A DNA stretch of 32,617 bases from Phycisphaerales bacterium (GTDB lineage: Bacteria > Planctomycetota > Phycisphaerae > SM23-33): assembly GCA_003153915.1 (NCBI GenBank), contig PMBX01000114.1, forward strand, positions 1 through 32,617, written 5' to 3'. Below the pieces are notes generated by a model. It was given only the letters and a program-made list of their open reading frames with translations, was not told where the DNA came from and made no database searches. Every line of letters starts with the position of its first letter. Position 1 is the stretch's first letter. Positions 13,907-31,584 of this stretch are shown piece by piece. A program made the position numbers and the translations under genes.

Positions 13907-14391
13907 GTGTTGTCCAACTCCTTGATCTGGTCGCGAAGCATGGCGGCCTTTTCGTAGTCCTCCGCAACAATGGCGTTCTTCAGTTCCGCCCGGAGGCGAA
14001 GCAGCGCGGTGTGCTTCTTCTGGTCTCCCCCCGCCCGGTGGGGCACTTTCCCCACGTGCTGGGTGGCCCCGCCCTGGGCGCGTTCCAATAACGGCAGCAT
14101 CGCCTCGGCGAAGGCGTCGTAATCGTGGGGGCAACCCAGCAGGCTCTGCTGGCGAAACTCGCTGAAACGCATCCCGCAGACATCACAGACGGGATCCAAC
14201 GCGCCTGTTTGTTCCCCGCCCTGGAGGACGAATTCCTCCAGTATCTGACTGAGCGTCATATGGTAATGGAAGGCGACACCCTCTGACACCGCACACTGGT
14301 TGCAATAGTGTTTCTCGATCTTCTGGCCCTGAATAATATCGAAAACGTGGATGGGGGCGGGCTTGCCGCACTTGTCGCACTTGTTGTCCAT
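13903..14391 (-). CDS. mcsA: Protein arginine kinase activator, UvrB/C-motif (UVR) protein with two Cys clusters
   Basis: Motifs present: CDKCG...CNQC, CDVCG...GCPHDY, and a C-terminal UVR motif LRAELKNAIVAEDYEKAAMLRDQIKEL. GGAG directly abuts the first ATG (14400) and lies 9 nt from the second ATG (14391), so 14391 is preferred. Confidence 0.8.
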   Translation of the reverse strand: MDNKCDKCGKPAPIHVFDIIQGQKIEKHYCNQCAVSEGVAFHYHMTLSQILEEFVLQGGEQTGALDPVCDVCGMRFSEFRQQSLLGCPHDYDAFAEAMLPLLERAQGGATQHVGKVPHRAGGDQKKHTALLRLRAELKNAIVAEDYEKAAMLRDQIKELDNT

Positions 14392-15020: not shown

Positions 15021-17006
15021 ATGGCTCATGACATATTGAAGGACTCGGTCAAGGCCCAGACCGGCCGTGCCGGCCTGCTGATCGTCGGCATTCTGGTCGG
15101 TGGGGTACTGGTTGGAAGTTCCTACCTGGCCGATTGGATCTTCGCTGGCCAGACCGCACCAGACGGTAGCAATTTTTACAGCGACACGCTGGCCCTGATC
15201 GGGGCGATCCTGCTGGGTCTGCCGATCCTCATTCATGCCGTAAAGCACCTCATGGAAGGCCACATGCACATGGACGAGCTGGTGGCGCTGGCGGTGGTGG
15301 CGGCCATCGCCGCCAGGGACTACAAGTCTGCCGGCGCGGTGGCGTTCTTCCTGCTGCTAGCCAACCTCATCGAGACTCGCACCGCCCTTGGCGCGCGGGC
15401 AAGCATCGAGGGGCTGGTGCGGCTGGCGCCCAAGAAGGCCCACCGGCTCACGTCCGGAGGGACCGAGGAACTGGTCGATCCGCTGTCGCTGGCCCCCGGA
15501 GACATCGTTCGCGTCCGCCCGGGCGACAACATCCCCGCCGACGGCGAGGTGGTCGCCGGACAATCGTCTGTCAACCAAGCCAACGTCACGGGCGAGTCGC
15601 TACCGGTGGACAAGACCGTCGGCGACGAGGTTTTCTCCGGCACCAACAACCTCGCCGGCGCCATCGACCTGAAAGTTACCCGCGCCGGGGAGGATACCAC
15701 CCTCGGCCGCGTGCAGAAGCTGATCCTCCAGGCCGAAAAGACGCGAATCCCCATCATGCGTCTCATCGACCGTTACGCCGGATGGTACACCCCAACCATC
15801 CTCATGCTGGCTGGTGCGGTACTGTTCTTCACGCGAGACAGAGGCGGATTGGAGCGGGCCGTAACCATGCTGGTGGTGGCCTGTCCCTGTGCGTTGATAC
15901 TGGCTGTCCCGACAGCGATGGTGGCGGCACTTTCTTGTGCCGCCAGGCTTGGCATACTCGTCAAGGACATCTCCACGCTGGAACTGGCTAAGGGCGCCAC
16001 GGCTTTTGTCTTCGATAAAACTGGTACGCTGACAACCGGTGAGCTTTCCTTGACGCAACTAGGCCCCGCCGATGGAATTGACCCGGCGGACTTGCTTTCC
16101 ACCGCGGCCTCCGCCGAGGGCCTGTCCAAGCATCCCGTAGCCCGCTCGGTGGTGGCCAAGGCGCAGGAGGCCCACTTGGTAATGAGCGAACCGACTGATT
16201 TTGAGGAAATCTCCGGCTGTGGGGTCCGCGCGCATGTGGGCGGAAAGACGCTGCTGGTCGGCCGATCGAGTTGGGTCGCCTCCCAGGGCGTCAACGTGGA
16301 AGTGATGAAAAACTCCAAATACCCCGAACCGGAAGGCCTCAGCACGCTCTACGTCGTCCGCGATGGGCGGCTTCTGGGCTGGATCGGCCTGGAGGACCGC
16401 ACCCGTCGTGAGGCCCGCCAAGCGTTGGAGGAACTACGCGGGCTTGGTATCAAGGACCTGGTCATGGTCACCGGAGACCGCTTGTCGGTGGCACGTCGCG
16501 TGGCCAGGGAGATGGGTTGCACGGAATTGCAGGCCGAGGTCCTTCCGCAGGACAAGCTGGAACTGGTGGCGGCGCTGAAGTCCAAGGGCCATCGCGTGGC
16601 GGTCGTCGGCGACGGCGTCAACGACGCCCCGGCGCTGGCGGCGGGGGATGTGTCCATCGCCATGGGCGCCGCCGGAAGCGACGTGGCCATCAACTCCGCC
16701 TCCATTGCGCTGCTAAACAACGACCTGCGGCGCCTCCCCTTCCTGGTCCGCCTCAGCCGCAAGACCTACCATGTCATCCACCAGAACCTCCTGTTCGGCG
16801 TGGGCTTTATCGTGGCGTTTGAAATCCTGGCTGGCTTTGGGCTTCTTCGACCGGTGCTAGGGGCGATGCTTCACATGCTGGCGGCGACCTTCGTGATCTT
16901 CAACAGCGCCCGATTGGTGCGATTCGGGGAGGAACTGCATCGTCCCGAAGACCAGCATCCCATTTGGGAGGCGCAACTCCGGACACAACCAGTTGCGGCC
17001 CGTTGA
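15021..17006 (+). CDS. Heavy-metal-translocating P1B-type ATPase, metal specificity unassigned
   Basis: Motifs present: CPC (VVACPCALILAVP), FDKTGTLT, TGES, and VGDGVNDAPALA. ATG 15021 has AGGAGG 5 nt upstream and gives 661 aa. The ORF track starts at 14961. Confidence 0.9.
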   Translation: MAHDILKDSVKAQTGRAGLLIVGILVGGVLVGSSYLADWIFAGQTAPDGSNFYSDTLALIGAILLGLPILIHAVKHLMEGHMHMDELVALAVVAAIAARDYKSAGAVAFFLLLANLIETRTALGARASIEGLVRLAPKKAHRLTSGGTEELVDPLSLAPGDIVRVRPGDNIPADGEVVAGQSSVNQANVTGESLPVDKTVGDEVFSGTNNLAGAIDLKVTRAGEDTTLGRVQKLILQAEKTRIPIMRLIDRYAGWYTPTILMLAGAVLFFTRDRGGLERAVTMLVVACPCALILAVPTAMVAALSCAARLGILVKDISTLELAKGATAFVFDKTGTLTTGELSLTQLGPADGIDPADLLSTAASAEGLSKHPVARSVVAKAQEAHLVMSEPTDFEEISGCGVRAHVGGKTLLVGRSSWVASQGVNVEVMKNSKYPEPEGLSTLYVVRDGRLLGWIGLEDRTRREARQALEELRGLGIKDLVMVTGDRLSVARRVAREMGCTELQAEVLPQDKLELVAALKSKGHRVAVVGDGVNDAPALAAGDVSIAMGAAGSDVAINSASIALLNNDLRRLPFLVRLSRKTYHVIHQNLLFGVGFIVAFEILAGFGLLRPVLGAMLHMLAATFVIFNSARLVRFGEELHRPEDQHPIWEAQLRTQPVAAR

Positions 17007-17046
17007 TCATTTGCGATGATCGCGAGGCTTCCATCGATCGAGAGTG

Positions 17047-18441
17047 TCAACGGCTCGATTTGAAATGATACCGAGTCCTGGGCAACAACAAGATCCACAC
17101 GACGACGCAGGCCAGCAAGCCCGTGGCGAGGCACCATGCGTTGCCACGCCCCAGTGGCTCCACTCGCGCCCATTGCAGGCCCAGCAGGCCCGCCCCCGCC
17201 ATCACGCCCAGGACAACGAAGGACGTCAGGATCAGCCAATAGCTCCAACGAGCCCCCATGGCAAAGAAGGTCCACACAACCCACGCCACGGCGGCCAAGG
17301 CCGCAACTGCCCCGGCGCCGCCCAACCCACGGAGGGTGGGTCCGCCGGTGGAGGAGAGGGCCGTCAGGACGACCCCGCCGGCGATCAGCAACGCTGCGGT
17401 ACGTCCCAGCCAGGCCAGCAGGCTCACCGCCCCGGGGATGACGCCCGATGCCGTGGCAGGCTCCAATACCTTCCGCTGGAACAGGACGACCGCCAGCGCC
17501 ATGGCGGCGGCAACATAGAGAGCGCCGTATGCCGCAGCCAGGCCGATGTAATCCAAGGGGATGTCCAATTCTCGCATCAGCGATTCCTGGGCGTCGAAAT
17601 GCCTCAGGTTAGGAACGATCCATCCTATCGCGCGGATGACCGGCGACGGTTGCGACTCGGCGCCAAAGAGGAACGGGTGCGAATAGCCCACCAACAACAC
17701 GCCCAGGCAGACCAGCAGGGTCATCACCTGCCCCAGGCGAACGCTGGCGGCGATGGCCACCGCCGAGAAGACCAGCACGGCCAAGAGGCTCAATACCATG
17801 GCTGCGGGCAGTTGCGGGCTAATCTCCAGGCCGAAAGGAACGATCTCCCATCCCTTGCCGACAAAACCAATCACCCCGGCTGTCGCGGTCAGCATAACCA
17901 CGCCGCCCACCACGCCCGTGGCGGCAAACGACCAGCCGAACAACAGGTTACCCAGCAGCGACATCGCCAGGACCGCCCCGAAGCCCGACAGGCCCAGCAC
18001 GATGACCGGCCAGTCGTAGGGGTCGCTGGCCGTGGCCATCACTCCGTGCCTGGCCGTGATCAGGAAGGCCAGGCAGCAGAGGTAATAGGCCACCGCGACG
18101 GAGGCGGCCACGCCGGCGAATTTGCCCAGTACGAACGTCGCTCGAGAGACGGGCTTAGAGATCACCGTCAGGACGGTCTTATCATCGATCTCGATCCGCA
18201 GCGCGGTGGAGGCAGAAAAAGCCGCGATCAACAGCCCCGACATCAGCAATGTGCTGATGCCCAGGTCATACAGCATCTTCTGGTCGCTGGCGCGGTGAGC
18301 GCCGGAAGGATCCATCGTCCATCCGGCCAGCGGGACGTCCATTACCAGCACGGCGAAGGTCGCCAGGATCAGCACGCCGTAGACGGGCTGGCGAATCGTC
18401 TGCACAAATGTGTTTCGCCCTATCGACCAGAGCTTTACCAT
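17047..18441 (-). CDS. ABC-2-type permease-like polytopic membrane protein with an extra C-terminal TM bundle
   Basis: 464 aa. ATG has GGAG 9 nt upstream. The N-terminal pattern, TM1 then EIDDKTVLTVISKPVSRATFVLGKFAG, matches the E-x-T-x-(L/V)-x-(S/T)-x-P-(V/L)-S-R-x5-GK signature of ABC-2 permeases. About 12 hydrophobic segments. Confidence 0.7.
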   Translation of the reverse strand: MVKLWSIGRNTFVQTIRQPVYGVLILATFAVLVMDVPLAGWTMDPSGAHRASDQKMLYDLGISTLLMSGLLIAAFSASTALRIEIDDKTVLTVISKPVSRATFVLGKFAGVAASVAVAYYLCCLAFLITARHGVMATASDPYDWPVIVLGLSGFGAVLAMSLLGNLLFGWSFAATGVVGGVVMLTATAGVIGFVGKGWEIVPFGLEISPQLPAAMVLSLLAVLVFSAVAIAASVRLGQVMTLLVCLGVLLVGYSHPFLFGAESQPSPVIRAIGWIVPNLRHFDAQESLMRELDIPLDYIGLAAAYGALYVAAAMALAVVLFQRKVLEPATASGVIPGAVSLLAWLGRTAALLIAGGVVLTALSSTGGPTLRGLGGAGAVAALAAVAWVVWTFFAMGARWSYWLILTSFVVLGVMAGAGLLGLQWARVEPLGRGNAWCLATGLLACVVVWILLLPRTRYHFKSSR

Positions 18442-18579
18442 GGATTGTTACTCCGGTCCGGACACCGTCGGTGCCAACCGGCTTCCCGGTGGATTCGGAT
18501 GAACGGACCGACAAGGATTGTAGCGCCGCGGCAGGTGCTTACGCAAGGCTCGCGGCTGGGCTATGGAAGGGCTTGACAG

Positions 18580-20880
18580 ATGGAAAGCCAGAAACGTGCC
18601 AAGAACGTGGCGATATCCGGTGCGGTTCTCCAGACCGTACTGACTGCCGTCATGCTGGCCTTGTGGCTGGGGCTGGGGCGGACTTCCGCCTCGACGATGG
18701 CGTGCCTGTTTTTCCTGGCTGGCGCGCCGCTTCTGTGGCTGATGACGGCCGTGTTGCTCTATTGCCGCCAGCTTCAGCAACGCGAAGCCGCCGAACTGGA
18801 GGAAATCTCCGCCGCAAAGACCGGAGCGATATTCGAACAGGATTCCGTCGCCGTCCTCCGCCCCGCCCGAGCGAGGCTTGCCTGGATGGAACGGTGGGTC
18901 GCCCCGATTTTCACGCTGCTCTGGGCCGCCTACAACGGCGGAGCGGGGTTGCTGGTACTGCGAAATCTGTTGACCGGTCCGGCGGGCGAATTGCCCGACG
19001 GTACGGCCAAGGCGTCTCTGTTGGCGATCCTACTGGCCTTCGCGGGTTTCCTTTTCAGCCGGTACGCCATGGGTATGGGCATCCGGAGCGAATGGCGACT
19101 GCTGCGAGCGGCAGGGGGATTTCTCTACGCCAACGTCCTGGCCATTGCCGCCGTCGCCGTGGCGTTGTTGGCGGCGCACCAGGGCTACCTCCAAGTGGAC
19201 GCGGCCGCGGGGTATATCATCCCCTGCGTGCAGATCATCCTGGCCGTCGAACTTCTGTTGAACTTTATCCTGGACCTCTACCGGCCCAGGATGCCCGCGG
19301 AAGACTACCGCCCCGGTTTTGAGTCGCGCCTTCTGAATTTCGTGGCCGAACCAGCCGCCATCGGCCACTCCATCGCCGAGGCGATCAACTACCAATTTGG
19401 CTTCGAGGTCTCCAAGACCTGGTTCTACCAGCTTGTCAGCAAGGCATTCGTACCGCTGGTCATCTTCGCCGCCACCGTCCTGTTGGCCATGACCTCGGTG
19501 GTCATCGTGGAACAAGGCCAGCAGTGCGTGGTCCTGCACTGGGGAATGCCCCAGAAGGCGACCCTGGAACCTGGAATCCACTTCAAGTGGCCCTGGCCAA
19601 TCGACGTGGCCAGGTGTTTTGACGTCTCGACGGTGCACGAAATACTTCTGGGCGTCGGGGGCGAGCGAGACCCCAACCAGCGAGCCGCCGCTATCGTCCA
19701 GCAAGGCACGTTCAAGGGACGTGAACTTTATCTTTGGACCGCCGAGCACGGCCAGCGCGAGGAACTGGACTTTCTCCTGGCCGTCCCACCAGATCGAGCC
19801 TCACCCGCCGGAGACCGGCAAAGTCGTTTGCCCCCGGTAAGCATCATCAAGCTGGTGGTGGCCGTACGGTACGTCATCAGCGATCCCTTGAAGTTCGGCT
19901 ACCGCTTCGCCAACGCCGAGCAGATACTGGAAGACCAAGCCTGTTGCCAAATGGTCCAGTACTGCGCCAGCGCCACGCTGGATTCCCCGGTGGGGCCTGA
20001 AACTTCCGACCGCCCCGAAGCAATTATGACCTACGGGCGCCAGCGAGCGATGGAAGAGTTAAAGCACCGCATCCAGGCGACAGCAGACGACATGAGCTTG
20101 GGCGTTAGGATCACCTATGTGGGATTGCAGTCCGTGCATCCCCCCGCCTCGGCGGCGGGGGCGTTCCAGGACGTCCTCAAGGCCGAACGGAAACAGGATC
20201 TGATCCGATACCAGGCCGAAGCCGAGGCCAACAGCCTTCTGGCGCAGGTCGCCGGCGACCCCGCCTCTGCGCTGCGGTTGGCTCTGGCGATTCGGAGTTC
20301 CGAGGAACTGGAGGCCCTTGGCCACCTTCCGGCAAATCCCGCAGAGTTCCAACGAGCACTGGAAGAATACCTCCGCGCCGCCAATGGCGATTGCCGGTCG
20401 CTGGAGGAGGAGATCCAACGCGAGCGGCTGCTGGGAGCGGCCGCCGGGGCCAAGGACCAACTCCTGGAAGCCCAAATAGCCCACCTGGCCTTGCTGACGT
20501 CGCTGAACGATCCGCAACGGCGGGGAGAGCTTCCCGCCATGCAGGAAACCGCCCGGGCGACCGCCTCGGACCTGTTCGACCAGGCCGCGGGCACCCCGGC
20601 CTCCCTCGTCGCCCAGGCCTCCTCCTACCGATGGGCCAGGGAACTGGTAGAACGATCTCGGGCTGAGTCATTCGCCCGCGAGATGACTGCCTATCAGGCC
20701 AGTCCGCGAATCTTCATGCTGGACCGCTGGCTGGACGTGTGGGACCAGGTCCTGCCTAAGACCACCAAGTACGTCCTGGGTGTGGACCGCCGGAAGATCG
20801 AAATATGGCTCAACTGGGAGCGGGAAGCCGCCGTGATGGAAGGCGCCTTTGATGTGGAAAAGGCCACCCCCGCCAAATAA
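18580..20880 (+). CDS. SPFH/Band-7 (HflK/C-like) protein with a polytopic N-terminal domain and a long helical C-terminal region
   Basis: 766 aa. About 7 hydrophobic segments in the first ~310 aa, then an SPFH core (VVIVEQGQQCVVLHWG...EPGIHFKWPWPIDV...KLVVAVRYVISDPLKF), then Ala/Glu/Leu-rich helical sequence. Confidence 0.75.
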   Translation: MESQKRAKNVAISGAVLQTVLTAVMLALWLGLGRTSASTMACLFFLAGAPLLWLMTAVLLYCRQLQQREAAELEEISAAKTGAIFEQDSVAVLRPARARLAWMERWVAPIFTLLWAAYNGGAGLLVLRNLLTGPAGELPDGTAKASLLAILLAFAGFLFSRYAMGMGIRSEWRLLRAAGGFLYANVLAIAAVAVALLAAHQGYLQVDAAAGYIIPCVQIILAVELLLNFILDLYRPRMPAEDYRPGFESRLLNFVAEPAAIGHSIAEAINYQFGFEVSKTWFYQLVSKAFVPLVIFAATVLLAMTSVVIVEQGQQCVVLHWGMPQKATLEPGIHFKWPWPIDVARCFDVSTVHEILLGVGGERDPNQRAAAIVQQGTFKGRELYLWTAEHGQREELDFLLAVPPDRASPAGDRQSRLPPVSIIKLVVAVRYVISDPLKFGYRFANAEQILEDQACCQMVQYCASATLDSPVGPETSDRPEAIMTYGRQRAMEELKHRIQATADDMSLGVRITYVGLQSVHPPASAAGAFQDVLKAERKQDLIRYQAEAEANSLLAQVAGDPASALRLALAIRSSEELEALGHLPANPAEFQRALEEYLRAANGDCRSLEEEIQRERLLGAAAGAKDQLLEAQIAHLALLTSLNDPQRRGELPAMQETARATASDLFDQAAGTPASLVAQASSYRWARELVERSRAESFAREMTAYQASPRIFMLDRWLDVWDQVLPKTTKYVLGVDRRKIEIWLNWEREAAVMEGAFDVEKATPAK

Positions 20881-20914
20881 TCCCCAAGGGAAAAACCACG
20901 CAGAGGTATCGAAC

Positions 20915-21877
20915 ATGAAAAGACACGTGGGAATGTTGGTGCTGGCCCTGCTGGTGGTCGCGGCCCTGTTGGCCACCACGGTGGCCTTCAAGGTGGATTT
21001 CACCGAGTCCGCCCTGGTCAAGACCTTCGGCAAGACCACCCGCCACATCGACGGGGCCAAGGAGGCGGGGTTGGCCTTCAAGTGGCCCTGGCCGGTCCAA
21101 AAACTCATCCGCTACGACGTCCGGACGATGGTCTTCGAGGACACCTCCACGGAGCTTCAGACTCGCGACAAGCAGAACCTCCTGCTGACACTCTCCTGCG
21201 CCTGGCGGATCGCCGACCCGGTGAAGTTCAACGCCTCCATCCAGACGCCCAAGGCCGCCCAGGACCGCATCCGCGACCTGCTCCGCAGCGCCAAAAGCGA
21301 CGTCGTTGGCAGCCACAACCTCGAGGACTTCATCAATACCGATCCCAAGAAGATGCTGATCGCCTCCATCGAGGCCGAAATCCTCGCTCCCGTGCGGCGC
21401 GTGGCGATGGAGGACAATGGCGTGGAGGTCATCGCCGTGGGACTCAAGAGCCTCGGACTGCCTGAACCGGTCACCCAGATCGTCATCGAGGCCATGAAGG
21501 CCGAGCGACAGCGGGATGTGCGGCGATATGAGGCCGCCGGCGAGGCGCAGGCGACGGCCATCCGGGAACGCGCCAAGTCCGCCAGCAACCAGATACTGGA
21601 GTTCGCTAACCGCAAGGCCGCCGAAATCCGAACCGAGGGCGACCGCGCCGCGGCCACCTACTACAAGGAATTCGCCAAAGACGAACGTTTCAGCATGTTT
21701 CTCCGCTCCCTGGAATCCCTCAAGAAGGAGTTGGAGAGCAAGGCTGTGATTCTTCTGGACGGTTCACAACTACCGGCTGTGGGATTCTTCCAGGAAGGCC
21801 CCTCGCTGAAACCCTTCGACTCTCCGCCCGGGACCGCTGGTTCCACCGGCAAGACCGAGGCAAACCATGGCAAATAG
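20915..21877 (+). CDS. SPFH/Band-7 protein, HflC-like
   Basis: Start at ATG 20915 (MKRHVGMLVLALLVV...), with AGAGG 8 nt upstream; 320 aa. Single N-terminal TM, then VKTFGK...GLAFKWPWPVQKL...LTLSCAWRIADPVKF. Confidence 0.8.
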   Translation: MKRHVGMLVLALLVVAALLATTVAFKVDFTESALVKTFGKTTRHIDGAKEAGLAFKWPWPVQKLIRYDVRTMVFEDTSTELQTRDKQNLLLTLSCAWRIADPVKFNASIQTPKAAQDRIRDLLRSAKSDVVGSHNLEDFINTDPKKMLIASIEAEILAPVRRVAMEDNGVEVIAVGLKSLGLPEPVTQIVIEAMKAERQRDVRRYEAAGEAQATAIRERAKSASNQILEFANRKAAEIRTEGDRAAATYYKEFAKDERFSMFLRSLESLKKELESKAVILLDGSQLPAVGFFQEGPSLKPFDSPPGTAGSTGKTEANHGK

Positions 21878-21892
21878 TCCGGAGCCAGCACC

Positions 21893-23218
21893 ATGATGGA
21901 ACATAGCCATACACACCACGATCACAATCACGACCCGGATCCCCTAGGAGGGATTGAATCCCTCGATCCGGCGGGGCAAAGCCTCGCCAAGGCTTTGCGC
22001 GCCAGCTTCCGTTTGCTGTCGGCGATCATGGTCCTGGTGCTGGCGATGTACCTGTTGTCGGGGGTCAAGACCGTCCAGTCCTACCAGGTTGGTATCAAGA
22101 CGTTCCTGGGCAGGGTGGTGGGCCAGTCCGATCAGGGGCTGGCGTACGTCTGGCCCTTCCCCATCGGCGGCATCGAGATCATCGACATGCGCCAGCGGCA
22201 GCTCGGTGTCGATGACTTCTGGATGTACGAGACGAGCGAGGATAAGACCCGCGATCTGCTTTCCCGCGCCGGTTCCTCCTCACTGCGGCCGCAACTGGAC
22301 GGAGCGCTGTTGACCGGCGACCGAAGCCTGCTTCACGTGAAGCTTAACTGCATCTACCAAGTTGTCGATCCGCGGGCCTACGCCGCCGCCGTGGGCACCT
22401 TGGACAAGATCGAGGAATACAGTCCCGTCGAGGAGATGGTCCGTGCCGCGATATGCCAGGCCGCCATCCGCTGCGCTGCGACGCGGACGGCCGACGCCTT
22501 GCAGCGCACCGAGCGGGACCAGTTCGCACTCGATGTCGCCAGGACCGCCCAAGTTCAACTGGACTCGCTGAAAGCGGGCATCCAGATCAGCAAGGTGCTG
22601 CTGACCAACGCCAGTTGGCCCATCGAGGCGCTGCGGACTTACATCGACGCGCAGAACGCCGTCAGCCAGGCGGAGAAACTCAAGAGTGACGCCCGTGCCG
22701 AGGCCGAGAAGATCCTCAACGCCGCTGCGGGGGCAAGTTACCGAAAACTCGTCACCGATCCGGAACAAACCGATCCGGCATCGCGCTCCGCCGCCAACAG
22801 CGGTTCGGGCAATCTCATTGGACTATACGTCAAGGCCCTAGCTTCCAGCGACACGGCCAAGGCTGCCCAACTGCTGGACGCCATCGACGAAGTGCTGCTG
22901 AGCAACGAAACCGGAGGCGACGCCTCCAGAATTCTGGCCGAGGCCCGCGGCTATCGCACCGCAACCATCCAGCGCGTCAAGAGCCGCGCCGAGCGGTTCA
23001 ATGAACTGCTGCCCGAGTTCCGCCAGACGAGCGAACTGATGCTTCAGCGGCTCTGGGCGGCGACGAGGGAGGAGATTCTTAACTCCCCCACCGTGGAGAA
23101 ATTTTATCTCAGCTTCGGCGACGACAAGACCGTTCTGCGGATCAACCGTGACCCCGATGTGGTCAATCAGATTCTCAAGGAACTCAAGGCCGCCAAACAA
23201 CCCAAGTCGCCGCAATAG
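21893..23218 (+). CDS. SPFH/Band-7 protein, HflK-like, with a His-rich N-terminal tail
   Basis: 441 aa. GGAG 8 nt upstream. N-terminus MMEHSHTHHDHNHDPDP, one TM (LLSAIMVLVLAMYLLSG), and an SPFH core (YQVGIKTFLGRV...GLAYVWPFPIGG...LHVKLNCIYQVVDPRAY). Confidence 0.75.
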   Translation: MMEHSHTHHDHNHDPDPLGGIESLDPAGQSLAKALRASFRLLSAIMVLVLAMYLLSGVKTVQSYQVGIKTFLGRVVGQSDQGLAYVWPFPIGGIEIIDMRQRQLGVDDFWMYETSEDKTRDLLSRAGSSSLRPQLDGALLTGDRSLLHVKLNCIYQVVDPRAYAAAVGTLDKIEEYSPVEEMVRAAICQAAIRCAATRTADALQRTERDQFALDVARTAQVQLDSLKAGIQISKVLLTNASWPIEALRTYIDAQNAVSQAEKLKSDARAEAEKILNAAAGASYRKLVTDPEQTDPASRSAANSGSGNLIGLYVKALASSDTAKAAQLLDAIDEVLLSNETGGDASRILAEARGYRTATIQRVKSRAERFNELLPEFRQTSELMLQRLWAATREEILNSPTVEKFYLSFGDDKTVLRINRDPDVVNQILKELKAAKQPKSPQ

Positions 23219-23266
23219 CATCGAGGCGTTATTGAGGGTAGTGGATCCAAGGGTCAAGGAATGAGT

Positions 23267-24454
23267 ATGGCGGATGATGTTCAAGGCGTCGTGGTCGCCA
23301 GAAACCTCACCAAGGTGTTCCGCGACTTCTGGCTGCGCGAGAAAGTAACCGCGGTGGCGGGCCTGGACCTGGATATCAGGGCGGGGGAAGTCTTCGGACT
23401 GCTGGGGCCGAACGGGTCCGGAAAGAGCACCACGATCAAGATGATCCTGGGCCTGCTGTATCCCACGCGCGGTCGGGTAGCGGTGTTCGGACGCCTGCCC
23501 ACCGACGTTCGGATCAAGGCTGACATCGGCTTCCTTCCGGAGGAGTCGTATCTCTATCCGTTCCTGGACGCTCGCGAGACGCTGGACTTCTACGGCAGGC
23601 TGTTTCGCCAGCCTCGTCGCCAGCGCCGCCGGCGGGTCGATATGCTGCTGGACATGGTTGGTCTGGGCAGCGTGGCCTACCGCCGTGTGGGGGAATATTC
23701 CAAGGGCATGCAACGGCGTATAGGCCTTGCCCAGGCACTGATCAACGATCCTCAGTTGCTGATCCTGGACGAACCTACCAGCGGCATGGACCCCATCGGT
23801 ACGCGCCAGTTTAAGGACCTTATCCGTACCCTGGCGATGCGAGGAAAGACGGTTATCCTCTCCAGCCACCTGTTGGCCGACGTGGAGGATGTCTGCGACC
23901 GGATATGCATCCTCTACGGTGGACGGCAGCGGGCGCTGGGGCGGATGGATGAACTGCTGTCAAAGGAGGACTTTACGCAGATCACCACGGAGCGGCTGGA
24001 CGAGCCGTCGCTGGAATCGCTCCGTCGAGTGTTGGCGGCATCGGGAAGGGAATTGCTCCAAGTTTCCGCCCCTCGTGACAAGCTGGAGTCGTTGTTTCTC
24101 CGCATCGTCCAGGAGGCACAGGAGCAGCGCCTTTCCACCGGCGGGGCGGTGTCCGGCGGGGTAATCGCCGAATTCCTCCGGCCCGATCGAGACCAGACCC
24201 ACAATGTACTCGCCGGTCTGGTTTCGGTGGCGGAGGCCAAAGCCCCCACCGACACCCAGGAGGTTGCCTCCTCCCAGGCTGCGGCTGCGCAACGAAAAAC
24301 TGAGGTTCTGCGGGACCTGGTGGAACCGGAAAAAACCACATCGGCTCTCCAACCCCAAGGCGATCATAAAGACGCCTCGCCGACAAAACAACCCGATCGG
24401 GGCTTGCTGGATGAGCTCCTGGGCGGCCCCAAAAACAATCCGGAGAAATCCTAG
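23267..24454 (+). CDS. ABC transporter ATP-binding protein with a long low-complexity C-terminal tail
   Basis: Walker A GPNGSGKST, signature YSKGMQRRIGLAQAL, Walker B LLILDEPTSGMD, and H-loop SSH. ATGs at 23261 and 23267. AAGGA abuts the first and is 6 nt from the second, so 23267 is preferred. Confidence 0.9.
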   Translation: MADDVQGVVVARNLTKVFRDFWLREKVTAVAGLDLDIRAGEVFGLLGPNGSGKSTTIKMILGLLYPTRGRVAVFGRLPTDVRIKADIGFLPEESYLYPFLDARETLDFYGRLFRQPRRQRRRRVDMLLDMVGLGSVAYRRVGEYSKGMQRRIGLAQALINDPQLLILDEPTSGMDPIGTRQFKDLIRTLAMRGKTVILSSHLLADVEDVCDRICILYGGRQRALGRMDELLSKEDFTQITTERLDEPSLESLRRVLAASGRELLQVSAPRDKLESLFLRIVQEAQEQRLSTGGAVSGGVIAEFLRPDRDQTHNVLAGLVSVAEAKAPTDTQEVASSQAAAAQRKTEVLRDLVEPEKTTSALQPQGDHKDASPTKQPDRGLLDELLGGPKNNPEKS

Positions 24455-24456
24455 CC

Positions 24457-26100
24457 ATGCGAGGCATTTGGGCCATCGCCCGGCATACCCTTTCGCATTG
24501 CCTTCGGATGAAGATCGCGGGGGCGTTCGTCCTCATGCTGCTGGCGATACTGGCGGTCCTCCCCATGATCCTCCAGGGCGATGGAACCTTGGCCGGGCGA
24601 ATCCGCACCTTGCTGGCCTACGGCATGGGTGTCACGGGACTGCTGCTATCAGTCGTCACGCTACTGCTGTCGGTCGGGGTTATCACATCGGATGTCCGCG
24701 CCAAGGCAATCTTTACCGTCGCCACCAAACCGCTTAGCCGTTGGAAGTATGTCATCGGCCGCTGGCTGGGAGTGGTGGTTTTCGTCGGCATCCTGCTGGT
24801 GACCTCTGCCGTGACGATCTATGCCTTTGCCCAGCATCTGCGAACAGGCGAGGCGCTAAACCCCTCGGACCGCCGTGCCGTGGAAACGGAAGTTTTCACC
24901 GCGCGCCGCCAGGTGAGGCCCCAGCCCATCGACATCGACACGTTGACCGAACGCAAACGCCGGCAACTCCAGGACGAAGGGCGGTACCAGGAAGCGATGA
25001 AGGCTTTCGTCGCCCAAACCGGAGGCGATGAACAAAAGGCTCGCTCGTTGCTGGAAGAGCAGATTCGCTCCCAGGTCGCCGGTACGGCGCAATCCGTGGG
25101 ACCCGGCGGGGTCTTCCTATGGCAATTCAACGGCATCGCCGTCGCCGGAAACAAAAGGACGGCCAAGGGCCAGGTAACGCTGGTGGACGAGGAGACCGCA
25201 AGTCTACGTATCCTGGCCGATGATGAACTTTTGGGTAGTTTGGTCTTCGGCGGACCGGTTCGGGTCAACGGTGTGGACCTGCGCGTCACCCGGCTGGAGA
25301 AGGAATTCTTCGAGGTCCAACCCTCCGCCGACGACCGCGCCGGGGGCCGACTGGCCTCACTGGTATCCGGCGCCGAAACCGACATCGTTGCCGATCCCAC
25401 CATTCAACTCAGTTACAAGGCCGCCGCCTCCGTTAATCCCACCGACAAGCTGCTGCGAAGCATATGGCAACTGGACAATCCCGCCACGGGCTTCCGCTAC
25501 ATGGAACTTCGCAGCGATCCGGTGGCGACGCCGGCCACCATGACCGTCTCGGCGAGGCTGGTGGACCCCAATGGCAGGATGGACGCTCAGTACGTCAATC
25601 TCCCCGACTCCCAGGGCAAGGGCACTAGTGTGACCATACTGGAAAACGACATCGCCGTGCTTTTCCGAATGGGAAGCTTCGAGGGAACTTTTATACGAGG
25701 AACGGTGATGATCCTGCTTCAACTGGCCTTTCTGGCGGCAGTGGGCGTCGCGGCGGGAAGCTTCCTTTCCTTTCCCGTTGCCTGCCTGGTGGGCCTGGCG
25801 ACGTTACCGCTGTCAATGGCCGGAGGTTTCTTGAGAGAATCCCTGCGTCTAAATCCCGAATCAGGCCCGGCCACCGACGCCCTTACGCTGGTGGGCGCCT
25901 GGATCTTCCGCGTGGTGCGCGTCGGGCTACCGGACTTCGCCCAAACCTCGCCGGTGGATTCGTTGATCAATGGGATGAATATATCCTGGGAATACCTCGC
26001 CCAGGCGGCGCTGCTGACGGGGGTGATACGCACCCTGGCGATACTGGTGATTGCCTGCCTGATATTTCAGCGGCGCGAACTGGCGAGAGTCCAGGTGTAA
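24457..26100 (+). CDS. ABC-2-type permease with a ~280-aa extracytoplasmic insertion
   Basis: 547 aa. ATG is 2 nt after the ATPase stop. ABC-2 signature SDVRAKAIFTVATKPLSRWKYVIGRWLG. Three N-terminal and about three C-terminal TM segments flank a long soluble region. Confidence 0.7.
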   Translation: MRGIWAIARHTLSHCLRMKIAGAFVLMLLAILAVLPMILQGDGTLAGRIRTLLAYGMGVTGLLLSVVTLLLSVGVITSDVRAKAIFTVATKPLSRWKYVIGRWLGVVVFVGILLVTSAVTIYAFAQHLRTGEALNPSDRRAVETEVFTARRQVRPQPIDIDTLTERKRRQLQDEGRYQEAMKAFVAQTGGDEQKARSLLEEQIRSQVAGTAQSVGPGGVFLWQFNGIAVAGNKRTAKGQVTLVDEETASLRILADDELLGSLVFGGPVRVNGVDLRVTRLEKEFFEVQPSADDRAGGRLASLVSGAETDIVADPTIQLSYKAAASVNPTDKLLRSIWQLDNPATGFRYMELRSDPVATPATMTVSARLVDPNGRMDAQYVNLPDSQGKGTSVTILENDIAVLFRMGSFEGTFIRGTVMILLQLAFLAAVGVAAGSFLSFPVACLVGLATLPLSMAGGFLRESLRLNPESGPATDALTLVGAWIFRVVRVGLPDFAQTSPVDSLINGMNISWEYLAQAALLTGVIRTLAILVIACLIFQRRELARVQV

Positions 26101-26102
26101 CT

Positions 26103-28016
26103 ATGCGTTCCTGGTTAATCCAAGGTTTGTGGCTGGCGGCGGCTGCGGGATTGGCGGTCGGGGGAGGCGCGCTTCAACGTCCCATGGACGAACGGGGCAG
26201 CCGGTTCGGCCTCAATACCATCGACCGGCAGGTCGCCCAAACGCACCCTTGGGTGGCGTTGGTCAATATAGCCCCAGGCGGATTGCGGGCGCCGATCGTC
26301 GATTACCTCTGGATCCGCGCCGAGAAACTGAAAAACGCCGGACGCTATTTCGACGCCATGCAACTGGCGGACCTGATCTGCACATTGCAGCCACGTTTTC
26401 CGGGGGTGTGGTCCTTCCACTCCTGGAACATGGCCTGGAACATCTCCGTGGCCACGCAGACGAGCGAGGAGCGATGGTTGTGGGTGTCCAACGGTATGAA
26501 GCTTCTACGGGACAAGGGGCTGGCGTATAACCCCCAATCCCTGCTGCTCTACAAGGACCTGGGCTGGGTGTTCTTCTCCAAGATGGGGCAAAACCTCGAC
26601 GACATGCACATGATCTACAAGCGGCGGTGGGCGAGCCAGATGCAACGGCTGCTGGGCGCTCCTCCGACAGGTGAGAACGCCAAGGTGATCGACACATTTC
26701 GAGCCATCGCCGAGGCGCCTCTTGATAAAAACCTCGCCCGTCAAGGCCGCCAGACCATCCAGCCGGACCAACTGGCGGTTCTCCTGAGCGATCCCAACGC
26801 CGCCGATTACGCCAGACAACTGGCGAGATTCGCTGTTGGGATCGACGAAAGCCTGCTGGACGCCTACAATCGTTTCAGTCTCGACGAAGCAGCCAACATC
26901 GTCCGCTACCAACCGCCCTCGCCAAGAACTCCGGAGGAACGTTCCCTAACTAATCTAATCAACAGTCCTGCCTACGTGCAGGCCAGGGGCAAGTTGCTGG
27001 CCTTCGTCCGAGCGCAGGTCCTATGGAATACCTACAAGATGGACCCGCGGTGGATGCTGGGCCTGATGGAAAAATACGACGCGCCGCTGGACTGGCGTCT
27101 GGTCTGGCCGCACGCTCTGTACTGGGTGAGCTACGGGATGCACGTCTGTCAGGATGTTGACCTGGCCAGTATTACGTCCCTGAACACCGACCGCGTCGCC
27201 TTCGCCTCGCTCCAGGCGATGTCCTGGAACGGCAGGATGACATACATGGACAATCCCGAAAATCCCGATCTGCCGATGATTACCCTCTGGTCGGATTGGC
27301 GATATATCGACTCCGTCCATCGCGAGTGGCTGGCGATGATCGAGGAGTTCTGCAAGGCACGGGGAGAGAAGCTGGAAAACAGCGTCCTGAAACCAGGACA
27401 CATCAATTACCTCGTCGCGGCCATCCAGATGCTCTATGTCCAGAACCGCCACGAGAAGGCCCAGGAATACCTGGACTGGATCAAGACCAACTACAAGATG
27501 ACCGGGGATATCTGGGACCTTGACCTGGGTGATTTCGTCGTCAAGTCGCTGACTGACAACGACACGCCCACCATGGATGTAACACGAAGCCAGTTGACCG
27601 CGGCGATGGAGATGGCCTTCTACTTCCTGGCCCTCGGCGACCAGGCCGCCTACCGCGACAACGTTCGCTACGCGCAGCGGCTGTACCAGGCCTATCAGAA
27701 AGCCTCGCAGTTCCAGCGCATCAAGATGGTCGATTTTCAGACCCTCGCCGGCGCGATCGCCGCGCAGATGGTCGTTGAGCCTCGCGCGGTGGGATTGAAC
27801 CTCCCGCTGATCGCCCGCGCGAACCTCTACACCCGGCTGGAACGACAAATCCAACTTGCCGCTTTTGACCGCCTGTCCGGCTCACGGGATTTGCAAAGAC
27901 TCTGCCAGGCTGAAAATCTTGACTTCGATCAGGCATTCCCCACTCCGGTCGGCATCGAGGAATACCGCAGTCAACAGCGGCGGATGCTCCTTCCGGCCGC
28001 CCCACCGTCACCATAA
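26103..28016 (+). CDS. N-terminally anchored 637-aa helical (TPR-like?) protein of unknown function
   Basis: ATG is 2 nt after the permease stop. A single N-terminal hydrophobic segment (LIQGLWLAAAAGLAVGGGAL), then Trp/Tyr-rich, apparently all-helical sequence. No catalytic motif recognised. Confidence 0.65.
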   Translation: MRSWLIQGLWLAAAAGLAVGGGALQRPMDERGSRFGLNTIDRQVAQTHPWVALVNIAPGGLRAPIVDYLWIRAEKLKNAGRYFDAMQLADLICTLQPRFPGVWSFHSWNMAWNISVATQTSEERWLWVSNGMKLLRDKGLAYNPQSLLLYKDLGWVFFSKMGQNLDDMHMIYKRRWASQMQRLLGAPPTGENAKVIDTFRAIAEAPLDKNLARQGRQTIQPDQLAVLLSDPNAADYARQLARFAVGIDESLLDAYNRFSLDEAANIVRYQPPSPRTPEERSLTNLINSPAYVQARGKLLAFVRAQVLWNTYKMDPRWMLGLMEKYDAPLDWRLVWPHALYWVSYGMHVCQDVDLASITSLNTDRVAFASLQAMSWNGRMTYMDNPENPDLPMITLWSDWRYIDSVHREWLAMIEEFCKARGEKLENSVLKPGHINYLVAAIQMLYVQNRHEKAQEYLDWIKTNYKMTGDIWDLDLGDFVVKSLTDNDTPTMDVTRSQLTAAMEMAFYFLALGDQAAYRDNVRYAQRLYQAYQKASQFQRIKMVDFQTLAGAIAAQMVVEPRAVGLNLPLIARANLYTRLERQIQLAAFDRLSGSRDLQRLCQAENLDFDQAFPTPVGIEEYRSQQRRMLLPAAPPSP

Positions 28017-28460: not shown

Positions 28461-29876
28461 TCACGTCTTGATGGAATCCAGCATGACCACCGCGATAGGA
28501 CCAAACAGCAGGATGGGTACCCAGGCAGCCCAGGCGGCGGGCAATCCCAGGTAGCGGCAGAGGTGGATGAACGCATAGAACGTCGCGACCGTCAGGAGGC
28601 ATAGCGAGGCCGATGCCTTGATATCCCGCTCGCGCGAGAGGATGAAGGGCAGCCCCAGCAGCAGCAGGATGAGGTTGTCGATCGGCTCGGTCACGCGGAC
28701 ATGTTTGACAAGTTTGGCGGCATCGAGGTCCGTGGCGCGACGCAACTGCATTATGTCCGTCAGTTGCCGGCTGGAAAGGTAATCCATCCACCGGCTGGAT
28801 CGGCGAAGTAACAGGTCCTCCTTGGTAAGGTCCGATGGACAAAACGCCCGCCCGTCCTGTAGCTGCCAATATCCCCCACCCTCTTGGCTCCGCCATCTGG
28901 CCGCGACGGCGGCAAAGATACACAGAACCTTCCCTTCCTGAGAACGGAAGGTAAAGGTGGGGTTGCGAAGTTCTCCGGCCAGTTGGTCGTCGTCGGGAAG
29001 CTGTTCGGTCTGGATGTCGCCTGCCAGGGGCCGGTCCAACGCGTACCGGTCAGCCTCGATGCGCATACCATAAAAGGCATCGTCGTCGCTAACGGGGCGA
29101 ACGGCCAGGACAGGGCGGTCACCGGCGGGACGGGACATCGCCGCCTCTCCGGCCAGGCCCCGTTCGACGAGTTTTCGTGGTCCGACGACGGAGTAGACCG
29201 CTCGTGTGTCGGGCGTGTGGGACCACGCAACGCCTTCTCCACCCGCAGGAGAGAGCACGGCGTCCTGGAAGATCCATCCGTCCTTGCCGCGCATCTGTCC
29301 GGGGCTTGCCTCTAACCCGAAAATTCCGGCCACCTGTCGCAGTCGCGAGTCACGCAAGGCCACTACGGGCCGGGCCATCTTGTCTTCCACGGGATTGAAT
29401 GTCTCGCCATACCACACCGACCCTTGCCCATCGGCGATCAAGTGGACCCTGAAGGATTTGCCGACGGCCACGTCATCCCGGTCGCGGGCGAGCTTGTCGG
29501 CGAAGTGCGGAATAACCAACTCCTGGTCCAGCACGATCAGCCCGCCCAACAGCATCGCGCAGAGGACGATGGGCCAGACGACCCGGTGAAGGCTCACTCC
29601 CGACGCCAGGATGGCCACCAGCTCGTTGGTGTGGTTCATCATGGCCAGGGTGAACGTGGCGGCCGCCACGATAATCACCCCTCCCAACTGAGCCACGTAG
29701 GCCAACGACTGGTATCCGTAATAGCTGGCGATGGCCGAGAAGGTTCTTTTCTGCTCGACGAATTCATCCAAATTGATGAACAGGTCGGTAACGATCCTCA
29801 TGGCCATGAGAACGACGAACCATAGGACGGCCGAATATAGAAAGCTTCGGATAATGTAGCGGTCGAGAATTCTCAT
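28461..29876 (-). CDS. lptG: LptF/LptG-family (YjgP/YjgQ) LPS export permease
   Basis: 471 aa. N-terminus MRILDRYIIRSFL, NELVAILASGVSLHRV block, and C-terminal TM bundle. The symbol is assigned only from gene order (second of the pair). Confidence 0.8.
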   Translation of the reverse strand: MRILDRYIIRSFLYSAVLWFVVLMAMRIVTDLFINLDEFVEQKRTFSAIASYYGYQSLAYVAQLGGVIIVAAATFTLAMMNHTNELVAILASGVSLHRVVWPIVLCAMLLGGLIVLDQELVIPHFADKLARDRDDVAVGKSFRVHLIADGQGSVWYGETFNPVEDKMARPVVALRDSRLRQVAGIFGLEASPGQMRGKDGWIFQDAVLSPAGGEGVAWSHTPDTRAVYSVVGPRKLVERGLAGEAAMSRPAGDRPVLAVRPVSDDDAFYGMRIEADRYALDRPLAGDIQTEQLPDDDQLAGELRNPTFTFRSQEGKVLCIFAAVAARWRSQEGGGYWQLQDGRAFCPSDLTKEDLLLRRSSRWMDYLSSRQLTDIMQLRRATDLDAAKLVKHVRVTEPIDNLILLLLGLPFILSRERDIKASASLCLLTVATFYAFIHLCRYLGLPAAWAAWVPILLFGPIAVVMLDSIKT

Positions 29877-29892
29877 GCCGTTTTGGCTAACC

Positions 29893-31584
29893 TCATTTCC
29901 TGGATAAATGCAGATAGACGCACAGGTCGGCGATCATAAGCGCCACGATGCCCCCCCAGATGGCCGAGAGGCCATAGACCGTGGGAAGGTCGATCCGGCG
30001 AACCAACTGTTTGCCCATGAGCATCATGATGATGACAATGGTCGCGGGAATCGCCGCCAGGGCAAAGGCGCTGATAATCTGCCCGCCACGGAACATCAGC
30101 CCCAACGCCGCCCCCATGGCCACCATCAGGAAACAACTGATGCCATAAGCGATCCGCCCATGCAACTCCCCCTTGATCCGGTTGGTCAATCGGGGAATCT
30201 CGTTGAGGTTTAACTCGTCGATGTCCCTGCGAATGCTCTTGCTGGAGGTCATCTCATTTCCACGAAGGCAAATATCCGCCAGAGGGATGCCGGCGGCGCG
30301 GTCCAGGACATCTTTCGGCACGGCCAGGGGTGGGGATTCCCAATCCGTCCGTCGCTGCAATCCCCCGGCGGCGCCCCCGGATACGGTCACGCCGTCCTTC
30401 AGCGACAGCGTCGCCTTCGGGGCGTCCTGGCCCAGTGCCCAGTTTATTTCAATGGAACCACTCTCGGCCCGAATGATCTGTCGCACCAGGCCGTCCCGCT
30501 TGACGGCCACCTCCACCGACCGCGTAACCTGGCCGTCACGGGCCTGCGACCGCAAGGCGACGGTCTCCTTGTCCGTCACCTCGGCGCCCGCGGCGCGGAT
30601 GGCGTAGGTTTCGCCCTCCAGGGTCAGGCCTTCATAGGACCTGGCGGCGTTGACTTCCGAGGCTATTTCCCGCGACAGGACATCGTTGGCGAGCCTTCGC
30701 TGGATCTTGGTAAGCAGCGAGGCGATCTCGGAATTGGCGGCCGGGTCCTTCAGCGTCCCCAAGAGGCGGTCCCATTCATACCATGAGGCATCCTCCCGGA
30801 CGCGGTCGCTCAACAGCCGCGGGGGAAGCGGCATGGAAGCCTGCTCGATGATGTCACGGCTACTGGTCCGCATGACCGTCGGACGGATCAACGAAACGGT
30901 CACGAAGGTCCGCCCGTCGCTTTGGTCGAACTGGACGACGGCATTGGAGGCCGTCAGGATGCGGATGTCGTCCTTCTTGCGCCCATCGACGGCCACCACG
31001 CCACGGAGGTCCAATGTATCGTGGTCCTGCTCGACGCTGTCGGCGTGGACAACCTGCTGTCCGCGGTCGTAATCAACATAGCCCTGCGTGCGGAACCGCT
31101 GCCGGACGATGCCCAGAACATTGGCCTTGGCCGACTGCTCTGTCAACTGCATCATCTTTGGAGTAATGTAATTGCTCAGCAGAAGCGATAGCACGGTCAC
31201 CACCGCACCCAGCGCCATGGCGGGCTTCAATACCCGCACCGTTGACAGGCCGCTGGCCCGGCAAGCGGTCAGTTCATTGTCCTGGGCAAATCGCCCGTAG
31301 ACGATCGTCGAGGCAAACAGCGCCGCCACCGGCAGCGTCAATGACAGCGTGATGGGCACCGTGTAGGCCAGCAGCGCAGCCAGTTGCCCCGCGGCCAGGC
31401 CCTCCTTGCGCAGCGGCTCGATGATGGCGAAGATCGTCATCACCAACGTAAAGGCCACCAGTGCCAGGCCGGTGACCTTGGCCAACTCGCGAGTCAGGAA
31501 CACTCCCAGCGTCTTGATCAACTCTATCGTTCTCCGCCAAGGATGCGCCGCGGCGTCCAACGGCCCGGACGCACCGCATGGCAC
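29893..31584 (-). CDS. lptF: LptF/LptG-family (YjgP/YjgQ) LPS export permease
   Basis: 563 aa from GTG 31584, which has GAGG about 6 nt upstream. An in-frame TTG at 31521 is an alternative start. NELTACRASGLS block and TM bundles at both ends. The symbol is assigned only from gene order. Confidence 0.75.
   Translation of the reverse strand: MPCGASGPLDAAAHPWRRTIELIKTLGVFLTRELAKVTGLALVAFTLVMTIFAIIEPLRKEGLAAGQLAALLAYTVPITLSLTLPVAALFASTIVYGRFAQDNELTACRASGLSTVRVLKPAMALGAVVTVLSLLLSNYITPKMMQLTEQSAKANVLGIVRQRFRTQGYVDYDRGQQVVHADSVEQDHDTLDLRGVVAVDGRKKDDIRILTASNAVVQFDQSDGRTFVTVSLIRPTVMRTSSRDIIEQASMPLPPRLLSDRVREDASWYEWDRLLGTLKDPAANSEIASLLTKIQRRLANDVLSREIASEVNAARSYEGLTLEGETYAIRAAGAEVTDKETVALRSQARDGQVTRSVEVAVKRDGLVRQIIRAESGSIEINWALGQDAPKATLSLKDGVTVSGGAAGGLQRRTDWESPPLAVPKDVLDRAAGIPLADICLRGNEMTSSKSIRRDIDELNLNEIPRLTNRIKGELHGRIAYGISCFLMVAMGAALGLMFRGGQIISAFALAAIPATIVIIMMLMGKQLVRRIDLPTVYGLSAIWGGIVALMIADLCVYLHLSRK

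Follow-up and report, generated by a model that had tools for sequence, protein, structure and literature searches.

Genes of the SPFH locus

We analyzed a 32,617 nt stretch of DNA (the window) from contig PMBX01000114.1 of a Phycisphaerales bacterium (assembly GCA_003153915.1), which contains three adjoining genes for SPFH proteins (G1, G2 and G3) followed on the same strand by genes for an ABC ATPase (G4), a putative ABC-2 permease (G5) and a predicted periplasmic α-solenoid protein (G6). A second permease gene (G0) is transcribed divergently from G1, and a gene for a P1B-type heavy-metal P-type ATPase (U1) lies beyond G0. A preliminary description of this DNA had read G0 to G6 as a dedicated SPFH scaffold for an ABC-2 exporter. 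The coordinates and strands which it gave for these seven genes were all exact when the open reading frames (ORFs) were re-checked, as were the gaps of 34, 15, 42–48, 2 and 2 nt from G1 to G6 and the 138 nt divergent gap between G0 and G1. U1 ends at 17006, which is 40 nt before the start coordinate of the interval then described, and thus fell outside it.

The three SPFH assignments were upheld by Pfam, where G1 (18580–20880, plus strand, 766 aa), G2 (20915–21877, plus strand, 320 aa) and G3 (21893–23218, plus strand, 441 aa) scored 51.6, 88.9 and 48.6 bits respectively on Band_7 (PF01145), all above the gathering cutoff of 23.6 bits. Distant orthologs from loci L047, L052, L065 and L074 of the survey described below also passed. 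The top NCBIfam family was HflK (TIGR01933) for G1 and G3 and HflC (TIGR01932) for G2. In the PDB the nearest solved relative of G1, by profile search, was E. coli HflK (E 4e-21), while the top matches of G2 and G3 were E. coli HflC (E 9e-18) and HflK (E 4e-10). However, all three proteins missed the equivalog cutoffs (G1 91.1 vs. 159.4 and G3 93.7 vs. 159.4 bits on TIGR01933, G2 114.1 vs. 134.4 bits on TIGR01932). The preliminary description had called the three genes tandem paralogs. They are indeed adjacent, but their mutual identity of 20%–32%, found over partial ranges only, indicates that the term denotes an old divergence rather than a recent duplication.

Hydropathy analysis placed a single N-terminal transmembrane (TM) helix in G2 (residues 1–30) and in G3 (residues 34–63), and approximately seven TM segments in G1 at aa 9–313, which precede the SPFH domain and the coiled coil, in agreement with the polytopic N-terminal domain previously assigned to this protein. 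No PDB match to the G1 N-domain was obtained by profile search and the domain belongs to no known family; the idea that it might be a cryptic ABC-2 permease or a relative of G0 was rejected at an hhalign probability of 0.1%. A search of 1.84 billion representatives with the N-domain alone (aa 1–313) returned 809 representative clusters, in which it was nearly always N-terminal in proteins of 650–850 aa, indicating that fusion to an SPFH domain is the rule. A predicted cytoplasmic segment of G1 containing R235-P236-R237 and the sequence NYQFGFEVS was basic and invariant among orthologs. G3 begins with MMEHSHTHHDHNHD, a His-rich, predicted cytoplasmic N-terminal tail that precedes the TM helix (aa 1–17, positions 21893–21943, MMEHSHTHHDHNHDPDP). 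Such a tail was present in 22 of 60 G3 orthologs, some of which carry much longer His/Asp runs (e.g., L027, L063–L065), and was absent from the rest; it was weakly associated with adjacency of U1 (15/30 orthologs with U1 vs. 7/30 without).

G4 (23261 or 23267–24454, plus strand; 397 or 395 aa from two alternative starts) scored 109 bits on ABC_tran (PF00005), which bears out the earlier call of an ABC ATPase. Its best NCBIfam subfamily was TIGR01188 (200 bits, below the cutoff of that model) and its PDB matches included ABCA nucleotide-binding domain (NBD) 2 (E 1e-65) and NosF (E 3e-51), and we assign it by similarity to the DrrA/NodI/ABCA/NosF group of ABC ATPases. The C-terminal tail of approximately 140 aa (aa ~250–397, positions 24000–24454) is of low complexity and disordered-looking. 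It ends in the motif DRxV[IL]D[DE]LL, which was present close to the C-terminus in most of the ~66 orthologs listed, often with a VL[DE]EL repeat upstream of it. This terminal motif may be a docking peptide, and it is a matter of speculation that the acidic/hydrophobic motif of G4 and the basic segment of G1 are candidate docking elements.

Of the two permeases, G0 (17047–18441, minus strand, 464 aa) scored 29.5 bits on the ABC2_membrane_2 model (PF12679), just over its cutoff of 27.2, while G5 (24457–26100, plus strand, 547 aa) scored 20.2 bits and fell below it. Paralogy of the two proteins was detected by BLASTP over TM1–3 (E 4e-6) and by hhalign over TM4–6 (probability 97.4%), which agrees with the earlier report of a second, divergent permease paralog 138 nt upstream. 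The ABC-2 call thus held directly for G0, whereas for G5 it was reached through paralogy to G0 and through structure. The AlphaFold2 (AF2) model of G5 (pLDDT 89.8) presented a type-V-like helical core broken between TM3 and TM4 by a β-rich insert of approximately 280 aa (aa 130–407), predicted to be periplasmic, and Foldseek aligned this core with the TM domains of NosY and PmtCD at probability 1.0, the alignment being partial (~130 residues, 20%–26% identity to NosY). G0 has no such insert and carries an additional C-terminal block of TM helices. Some G5 homologs are annotated by JGI as multi-copper enzyme maturation permease. Within the G5 insert, aa 233–318 (positions 25150–25410) resembled the riboflavin-synthase/lumazine β-barrel by profile search (E 4e-6) and Foldseek.

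The sequence of the window matched exactly part of a 100.9-kb ENA metagenome contig. At positions 8468–9862 of L081, from the 100.9-kb contig that is otherwise the same, G0 was split into two ORFs (176 and 284 aa), while it was intact (464 aa) in the window and in L082; the split form reflects either a frameshift variant or faulty assembly. Long alternative-frame ORFs were numerous around G0, and a 510-aa ORF antisense to it (17044–18576, plus strand) was judged to be no gene but a shadow ORF of GC-rich DNA.

G6 (26103–28016, plus strand, 637 aa) had no Pfam, NCBIfam or PDB relative. Its AF2 model (pLDDT 90.9) was all-α, and a known enzyme or carrier fold was rejected since Foldseek returned only generic TPR/solenoid matches with a TM-score of at most 0.17; Pfam searches with 23 members of the family gave sporadic weak matches to TPR_14 only. 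At the N-terminus of G6 lies a short hydrophobic helix, which may be a membrane anchor or a signal peptide that is cleaved off. Among 99 orthologs, the positions conserved in 97% or more are occupied by W, R, N, K, D and Y and cluster at aa 59–184. A conserved face rich in these residues, together with the ABCA-like NBD of G4, would be compatible with a lipid or glycan as ligand too. Two G6 homologs of ~30%–32% identity (L071, 8744–10906, and L080, 3386–5182) were found with no other gene of the cluster 3–9 kb upstream, the former adjoining an SBP_bac_5 gene, and these may be paralogs or instances of independent use of the solenoid.

U1 (15021..17006, plus strand) starts at 15021 (MAHD...), in agreement with the gene call and with ortholog N-termini. 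It scored 182 bits on E1-E2_ATPase and also matched Hydrolase in Pfam, reached 552 bits on TIGR01525 against a cutoff of 346, and passed TIGR01512 and TIGR01511 as well (NCBIfam). The protein contains CPC in TM4 and the motifs DKTGT, HP and GDGxNDAP, and both CPC and a His in TM6 were conserved across 38 orthologs, on which grounds we classify U1 as a P1B-type heavy-metal ATPase. No HMA domain was detected in it by Pfam. An N-terminal HMA domain is common in the P1B family yet not universal, and many U1 orthologs have instead a short His-containing N-terminus which starts MAHEHLH...EHTHG. The TM signature of U1 (CPC and the TM6 His, with neither YN/MxxSS nor K/DxG) fits, in our reading of the P1B motifs by eye, no canonical metal class.

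The 138 nt region between G0 and G1 (18442–18579) presumably holds promoters. It contains the element GATTGTAGCG at 18516–18525, and in an alignment of eight orthologous intergenic regions, from loci with 45%–60% protein identity, its ATTnTA core was invariant. It probably acts as an operator or as part of a promoter; a role as shared operator elsewhere in the window was rejected as the element was not enriched there. No Rfam match was obtained in the G0–G1 region, and no riboswitch or known RNA regulator was found near U1 or G1. A consensus scan of the intergenic gaps of the window revealed no terminator-like site, and in particular none between the SPFH and the ABC genes.

Conservation of the gene neighborhood

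A G6 profile was run against one genome per GTDB species, which yielded at least 591 stretches with a relative, and the best 80 of these (L001–L080) were examined. Nearly all of the 80 were labelled Phycisphaerae, Phycisphaerales or Planctomycetota. Gene order was counted by tblastn with the window proteins in the 53 loci whose sequence extends 8.2 kb or more upstream of G6, where identity to the window G6 was 29%–54%. The order G0 (minus strand), G1, G2, G3, G4, G5, G6 was kept in 50 of the 53, and the exceptions were a locus with a divergent 820-aa Band_7 ORF at the G1 position, which would be the 51st (L052), a locus in which the block from G5 to G1 was inverted but still adjacent (L033), and the lone G6 homolog of L071. 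G0 was found in 52 of the 53 loci. Shorter loci contained as much of the gene order as the contig allowed, and Pfam analysis of distant loci recovered three Band_7 genes together with ABC genes (L047), Band_7 for G1–G3 (L074) and Band_7 for G2 and G3 (L065). Median gaps across loci were 46 nt (G1–G2), 18.5 nt (G2–G3), 38 nt (G3–G4) and 17 nt (G5–G6). The full module was also present in two metagenome-assembled genomes labelled Vicinamibacteraceae and Cyanobacteria (L062 and L069), labels which probably reflect mis-binning or mislabelling and not a true presence beyond Planctomycetota.

A reverse scan was anchored on distant G1 homologs in metagenomes, with 27%–37% identity to the window G1 (L083–L162). 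Here G1-G2-G3-U1 was present in every one of the 45 loci that extend 4.5 kb or more downstream, and G1-G2-G3-U1-G4-G5-G6 in all 24 that extend 10.5 kb or more. The P-type ATPase of this distant branch is an ortholog of U1 (52%–60% identity). Among the 53 GTDB loci U1 was located upstream in 31 (tblastn), and it was found between G3 and G4 in L073, L079 and L076 as well as in the whole distant branch. As U1 has shifted position yet stayed in the cluster, we take it to belong to the module; a large branch of the family has it within the operon. The preliminary description had named the ABC-2 transporter as the only candidate client of the SPFH proteins, a statement which does not survive the addition of U1.

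Adjacency of the SPFH and ABC genes, which could have been peculiar to one genome, was thus recovered in 50/53 G6-anchored and 24/24 G1-anchored loci, and these comparisons support a conserved operon-like unit over chance adjacency. Taken with U1, the genes form an eight-gene operon-like module (U1, G0–G6), under selection to remain linked and characteristic of the Phycisphaerae (Planctomycetota). At 25%–55% protein identity the same genes are still found in one order and closely spaced, amid changing flanks, which argues that the products work together, and on this comparative evidence we regard functional coupling of the module genes as well supported.

Directly downstream of the module the window carries an LptF/LptG permease pair (28461–31584, minus strand) with large periplasmic inserts of 471 and 563 aa. 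These downstream genes were never found in related loci by tblastn, indicating that linkage within the module is not a matter of general synteny, and all-versus-all clustering of ORFs from L001–L080 gave no further conserved neighbor of at least 120 aa. LptF/G, a heptosyltransferase and the other neighbors in the window were rejected as parts of the system on these two results. A tRNA-Ser is also located downstream of G6 in the window. On the other side, a gene for a McsB-like protein arginine kinase (ATP-gua_Ptrans and McsB_C; 12836–14391, minus strand) lies beside a gene with a UVR domain (McsA-like); pairs of the McsA/McsB type are known mainly from Firmicutes.

A possible periplasmic cage for membrane machines

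The reading that we favor, although we hold it to be evenly balanced between right and wrong, is a periplasm-facing cage of the HflK/C type which organizes two ATP-driven membrane machines, one an ABC machine and the other a P1B pump. The positive-inside pattern of the TM segments suggests that all three SPFH domains would face the periplasm, as in HflK/C. G1, G2 and G3 would co-assemble into a hetero-oligomeric cage above a patch of inner membrane, and the patch would hold a type-V ABC machine of composition G4(2)-G5-G0, in which G4 powers the G5/G0 heterodimer, along with the pump U1. In the periplasm the G5 insert may cooperate with the G6 solenoid, as NosY does with NosD or LptFG with LptC/A, and the cage would confine or regulate both machines as HflK/C does FtsH. 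A divalent or heavy metal is suggested as one of the cargoes by U1 itself, by the His-containing N-termini of its orthologs and by the frequent His tail of G3.

Several points weigh against this cage. A conserved operon can encode a pathway whose products form no single complex. Topology was read from hydropathy and charge rather than from a dedicated predictor. G1–G3 may yet have FtsH as their client, since the ftsH gene need not adjoin theirs. With respect to metals, the His tail of G3 occurs in only the minority of orthologs given above and its association with adjacency of U1 is weak, and no conserved His, Cys or Met was found in G5 or G6 (99 G6 orthologs), so that nothing links the ABC half to metals; G5 and G6 were rejected as metal binders for want of a conserved His or Cys.

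The preliminary description had named the ABC-2 transporter as client on the ground that neither FtsH nor NfeD is encoded here. This argument is weak because hflK-hflC and ftsH are unlinked in E. coli too, and the same fact lends something to a different explanation, in which G1–G3 are the HflK/HflC of this lineage and serve an FtsH encoded elsewhere, the linkage then reflecting either quality control or regulated proteolysis of the co-encoded transporters by FtsH or mere co-expression for envelope housekeeping. HflK and HflC are the top NCBIfam and PDB families for G1, G2 and G3, the order of G1 and G2 is the canonical one of K followed by C, and G2 and G3 are close in length to E. coli HflC and HflK. 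We nevertheless consider this explanation unlikely, since all three proteins fall below the TIGR01932/TIGR01933 cutoffs (114 vs. 134, 93.7 vs. 159 and 91.1 vs. 159), the 7-TM N-domain of G1 is never seen in HflK, and a third SPFH subunit with strict linkage to seven genes is unlike the hflKC operons in PMC13086221. Far less probable still is that adjacency reflects common descent and co-expression only, the SPFH, ABC and pump proteins being functionally independent. All carriers come from one class, and common descent therefore adds to the shared order, but that order holds at 25%–35% identity with both flanks replaced. Moreover, U1 moved into the operon and G0 was strand-flipped in some lineages and neither left the cluster, and the inverted block of L033 has remained adjacent.

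A further explanation centers on metal. U1 would bring a metal into the periplasm, where the NosFY-like ABC machine, together with G6, would spend ATP to pass it on or to load it into a target, much as NosDFYL handles copper. The SPFH dome would be the confined periplasmic chamber, and the tail of G3 would feed or sense the metal from the cytoplasmic side, for a pump that has no HMA domain of its own. U1 is integral to the operon in the large branch and has no HMA domain, its orthologs start with the His-containing MAHEHLH...EHTHG sequence, and His-rich G3 tails do exist; in addition, G5 and G4 are similar to NosY and NosF and the JGI name noted above refers to multi-copper enzyme maturation. 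Set against these points, G5 and G6 have no conserved His, Cys or Met, the cluster contains no NosD-like or NosL-like protein, the TM signature of U1 is, in our reading by eye, outside the canonical metal classes, and no metal riboswitch or regulator lies near, and we view this explanation as doubtful. A related possibility, which we advance only tentatively and think improbable, is a closed periplasmic dome of three HflK/C-like proteins over a P1B pump and a NosFY-like ABC machine, that is, a confined chamber for metallation or extraction, where the His tail of G3 would act in trans as the metal-binding domain of the pump. The term exporter used in the preliminary description was not established either, as the nearest solved relatives of G4 and G5 include NosFY; NosFY acts on a periplasmic partner rather than in simple solute export. 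An anti-phage defence system was also considered and rejected, PADLOC giving only generic ABC/AAA matches for G4 and nothing for the other six proteins.

To our knowledge the contents of a bacterial SPFH cage are known structurally in one case only, HflK/C-FtsH, and function is vague for most families. The strict genetic linkage seen here across the lineage, which ties an HflK/C-type trio to ATP-driven membrane machines, provides a concrete list of candidate clients, and the locus contributes two protein families for which neither Pfam nor NCBIfam has a model, the G6 solenoid and the G1 7-TM N-domain. If the favored cage does enclose the pump and the ABC machine, the role of SPFH proteins would widen from control of a protease to compartmentalized transport or cofactor delivery, and if the dome is a chamber as just outlined, there would be SPFH cages with transporters, not proteases, as dedicated clients. 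A practical limit is that the carriers are mostly uncultured Phycisphaerae.

Comparison with known systems

One of the closest known systems is HflK/HflC-FtsH of E. coli (PDB 7vhp, 7wi3, 9cz1), in that G1, G2 and G3 are nearest to HflK, HflC and HflK respectively, G2 and G3 each have one N-terminal TM helix followed by a large C-terminal SPFH/coiled-coil region predicted to be periplasmic, and the adjacency of K-like and C-like genes hints at a hetero-oligomeric cage. It differs in having two subunits where the present locus has three, with a 7-TM N-domain on G1 and scores below the equivalog level, and in that the genes described here are strictly linked to those of an ABC-2 system, a solenoid protein and a P1B pump, with no FtsH in the cluster.

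NosDFY(L), which assembles the copper site of N2O reductase (PDB 7o0y, 7znq), offers a parallel for the ABC half, as G5 resembles NosY, G4 resembles NosF, and an ABC-2 permease is combined with a large periplasmic partner. That partner is a β-helix in NosD, whereas G6 is modelled as an α-solenoid; G5 has its own 280-aa periplasmic insert, and two distinct permease paralogs are present. No NosD β-helix and no NosL was found among the cluster proteins by Pfam, and the G6 model is all-α. With the P1B ATPases (ZntA, CopA and CzcP groups) U1 shares TIGR01525/TIGR01512/TIGR01511 and the CPC, DKTGT, HP and GDGxNDAP motifs, but it has no HMA domain, its TM5/TM6 residues, read by eye, depart from the canonical Cu(I) and Zn(II) signatures, and it is encoded in an SPFH/ABC operon.

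Stomatin/flotillin-NfeD operons similarly place an SPFH gene with a dedicated membrane partner, although the SPFH proteins of the present locus are of the HflK/C class and their partners are ATP-driven transporters. NfeD had no match among the cluster proteins by Pfam, and no extra conserved neighbor of at least 120 aa was present in L001–L080. Three SPFH genes in one operon have a precedent in PaFlo5-6-7 of P. aeruginosa (PMC13086221), while a 2009 census of prokaryotic SPFH operons made no mention of ABC or transporter partners (PMC2636767). The arrangement had been put forward as undescribed, and a full-text literature search likewise returned no account of the cluster. Judged by its gene content, the locus would represent an SPFH cage operon with a new and well-defined set of partners.

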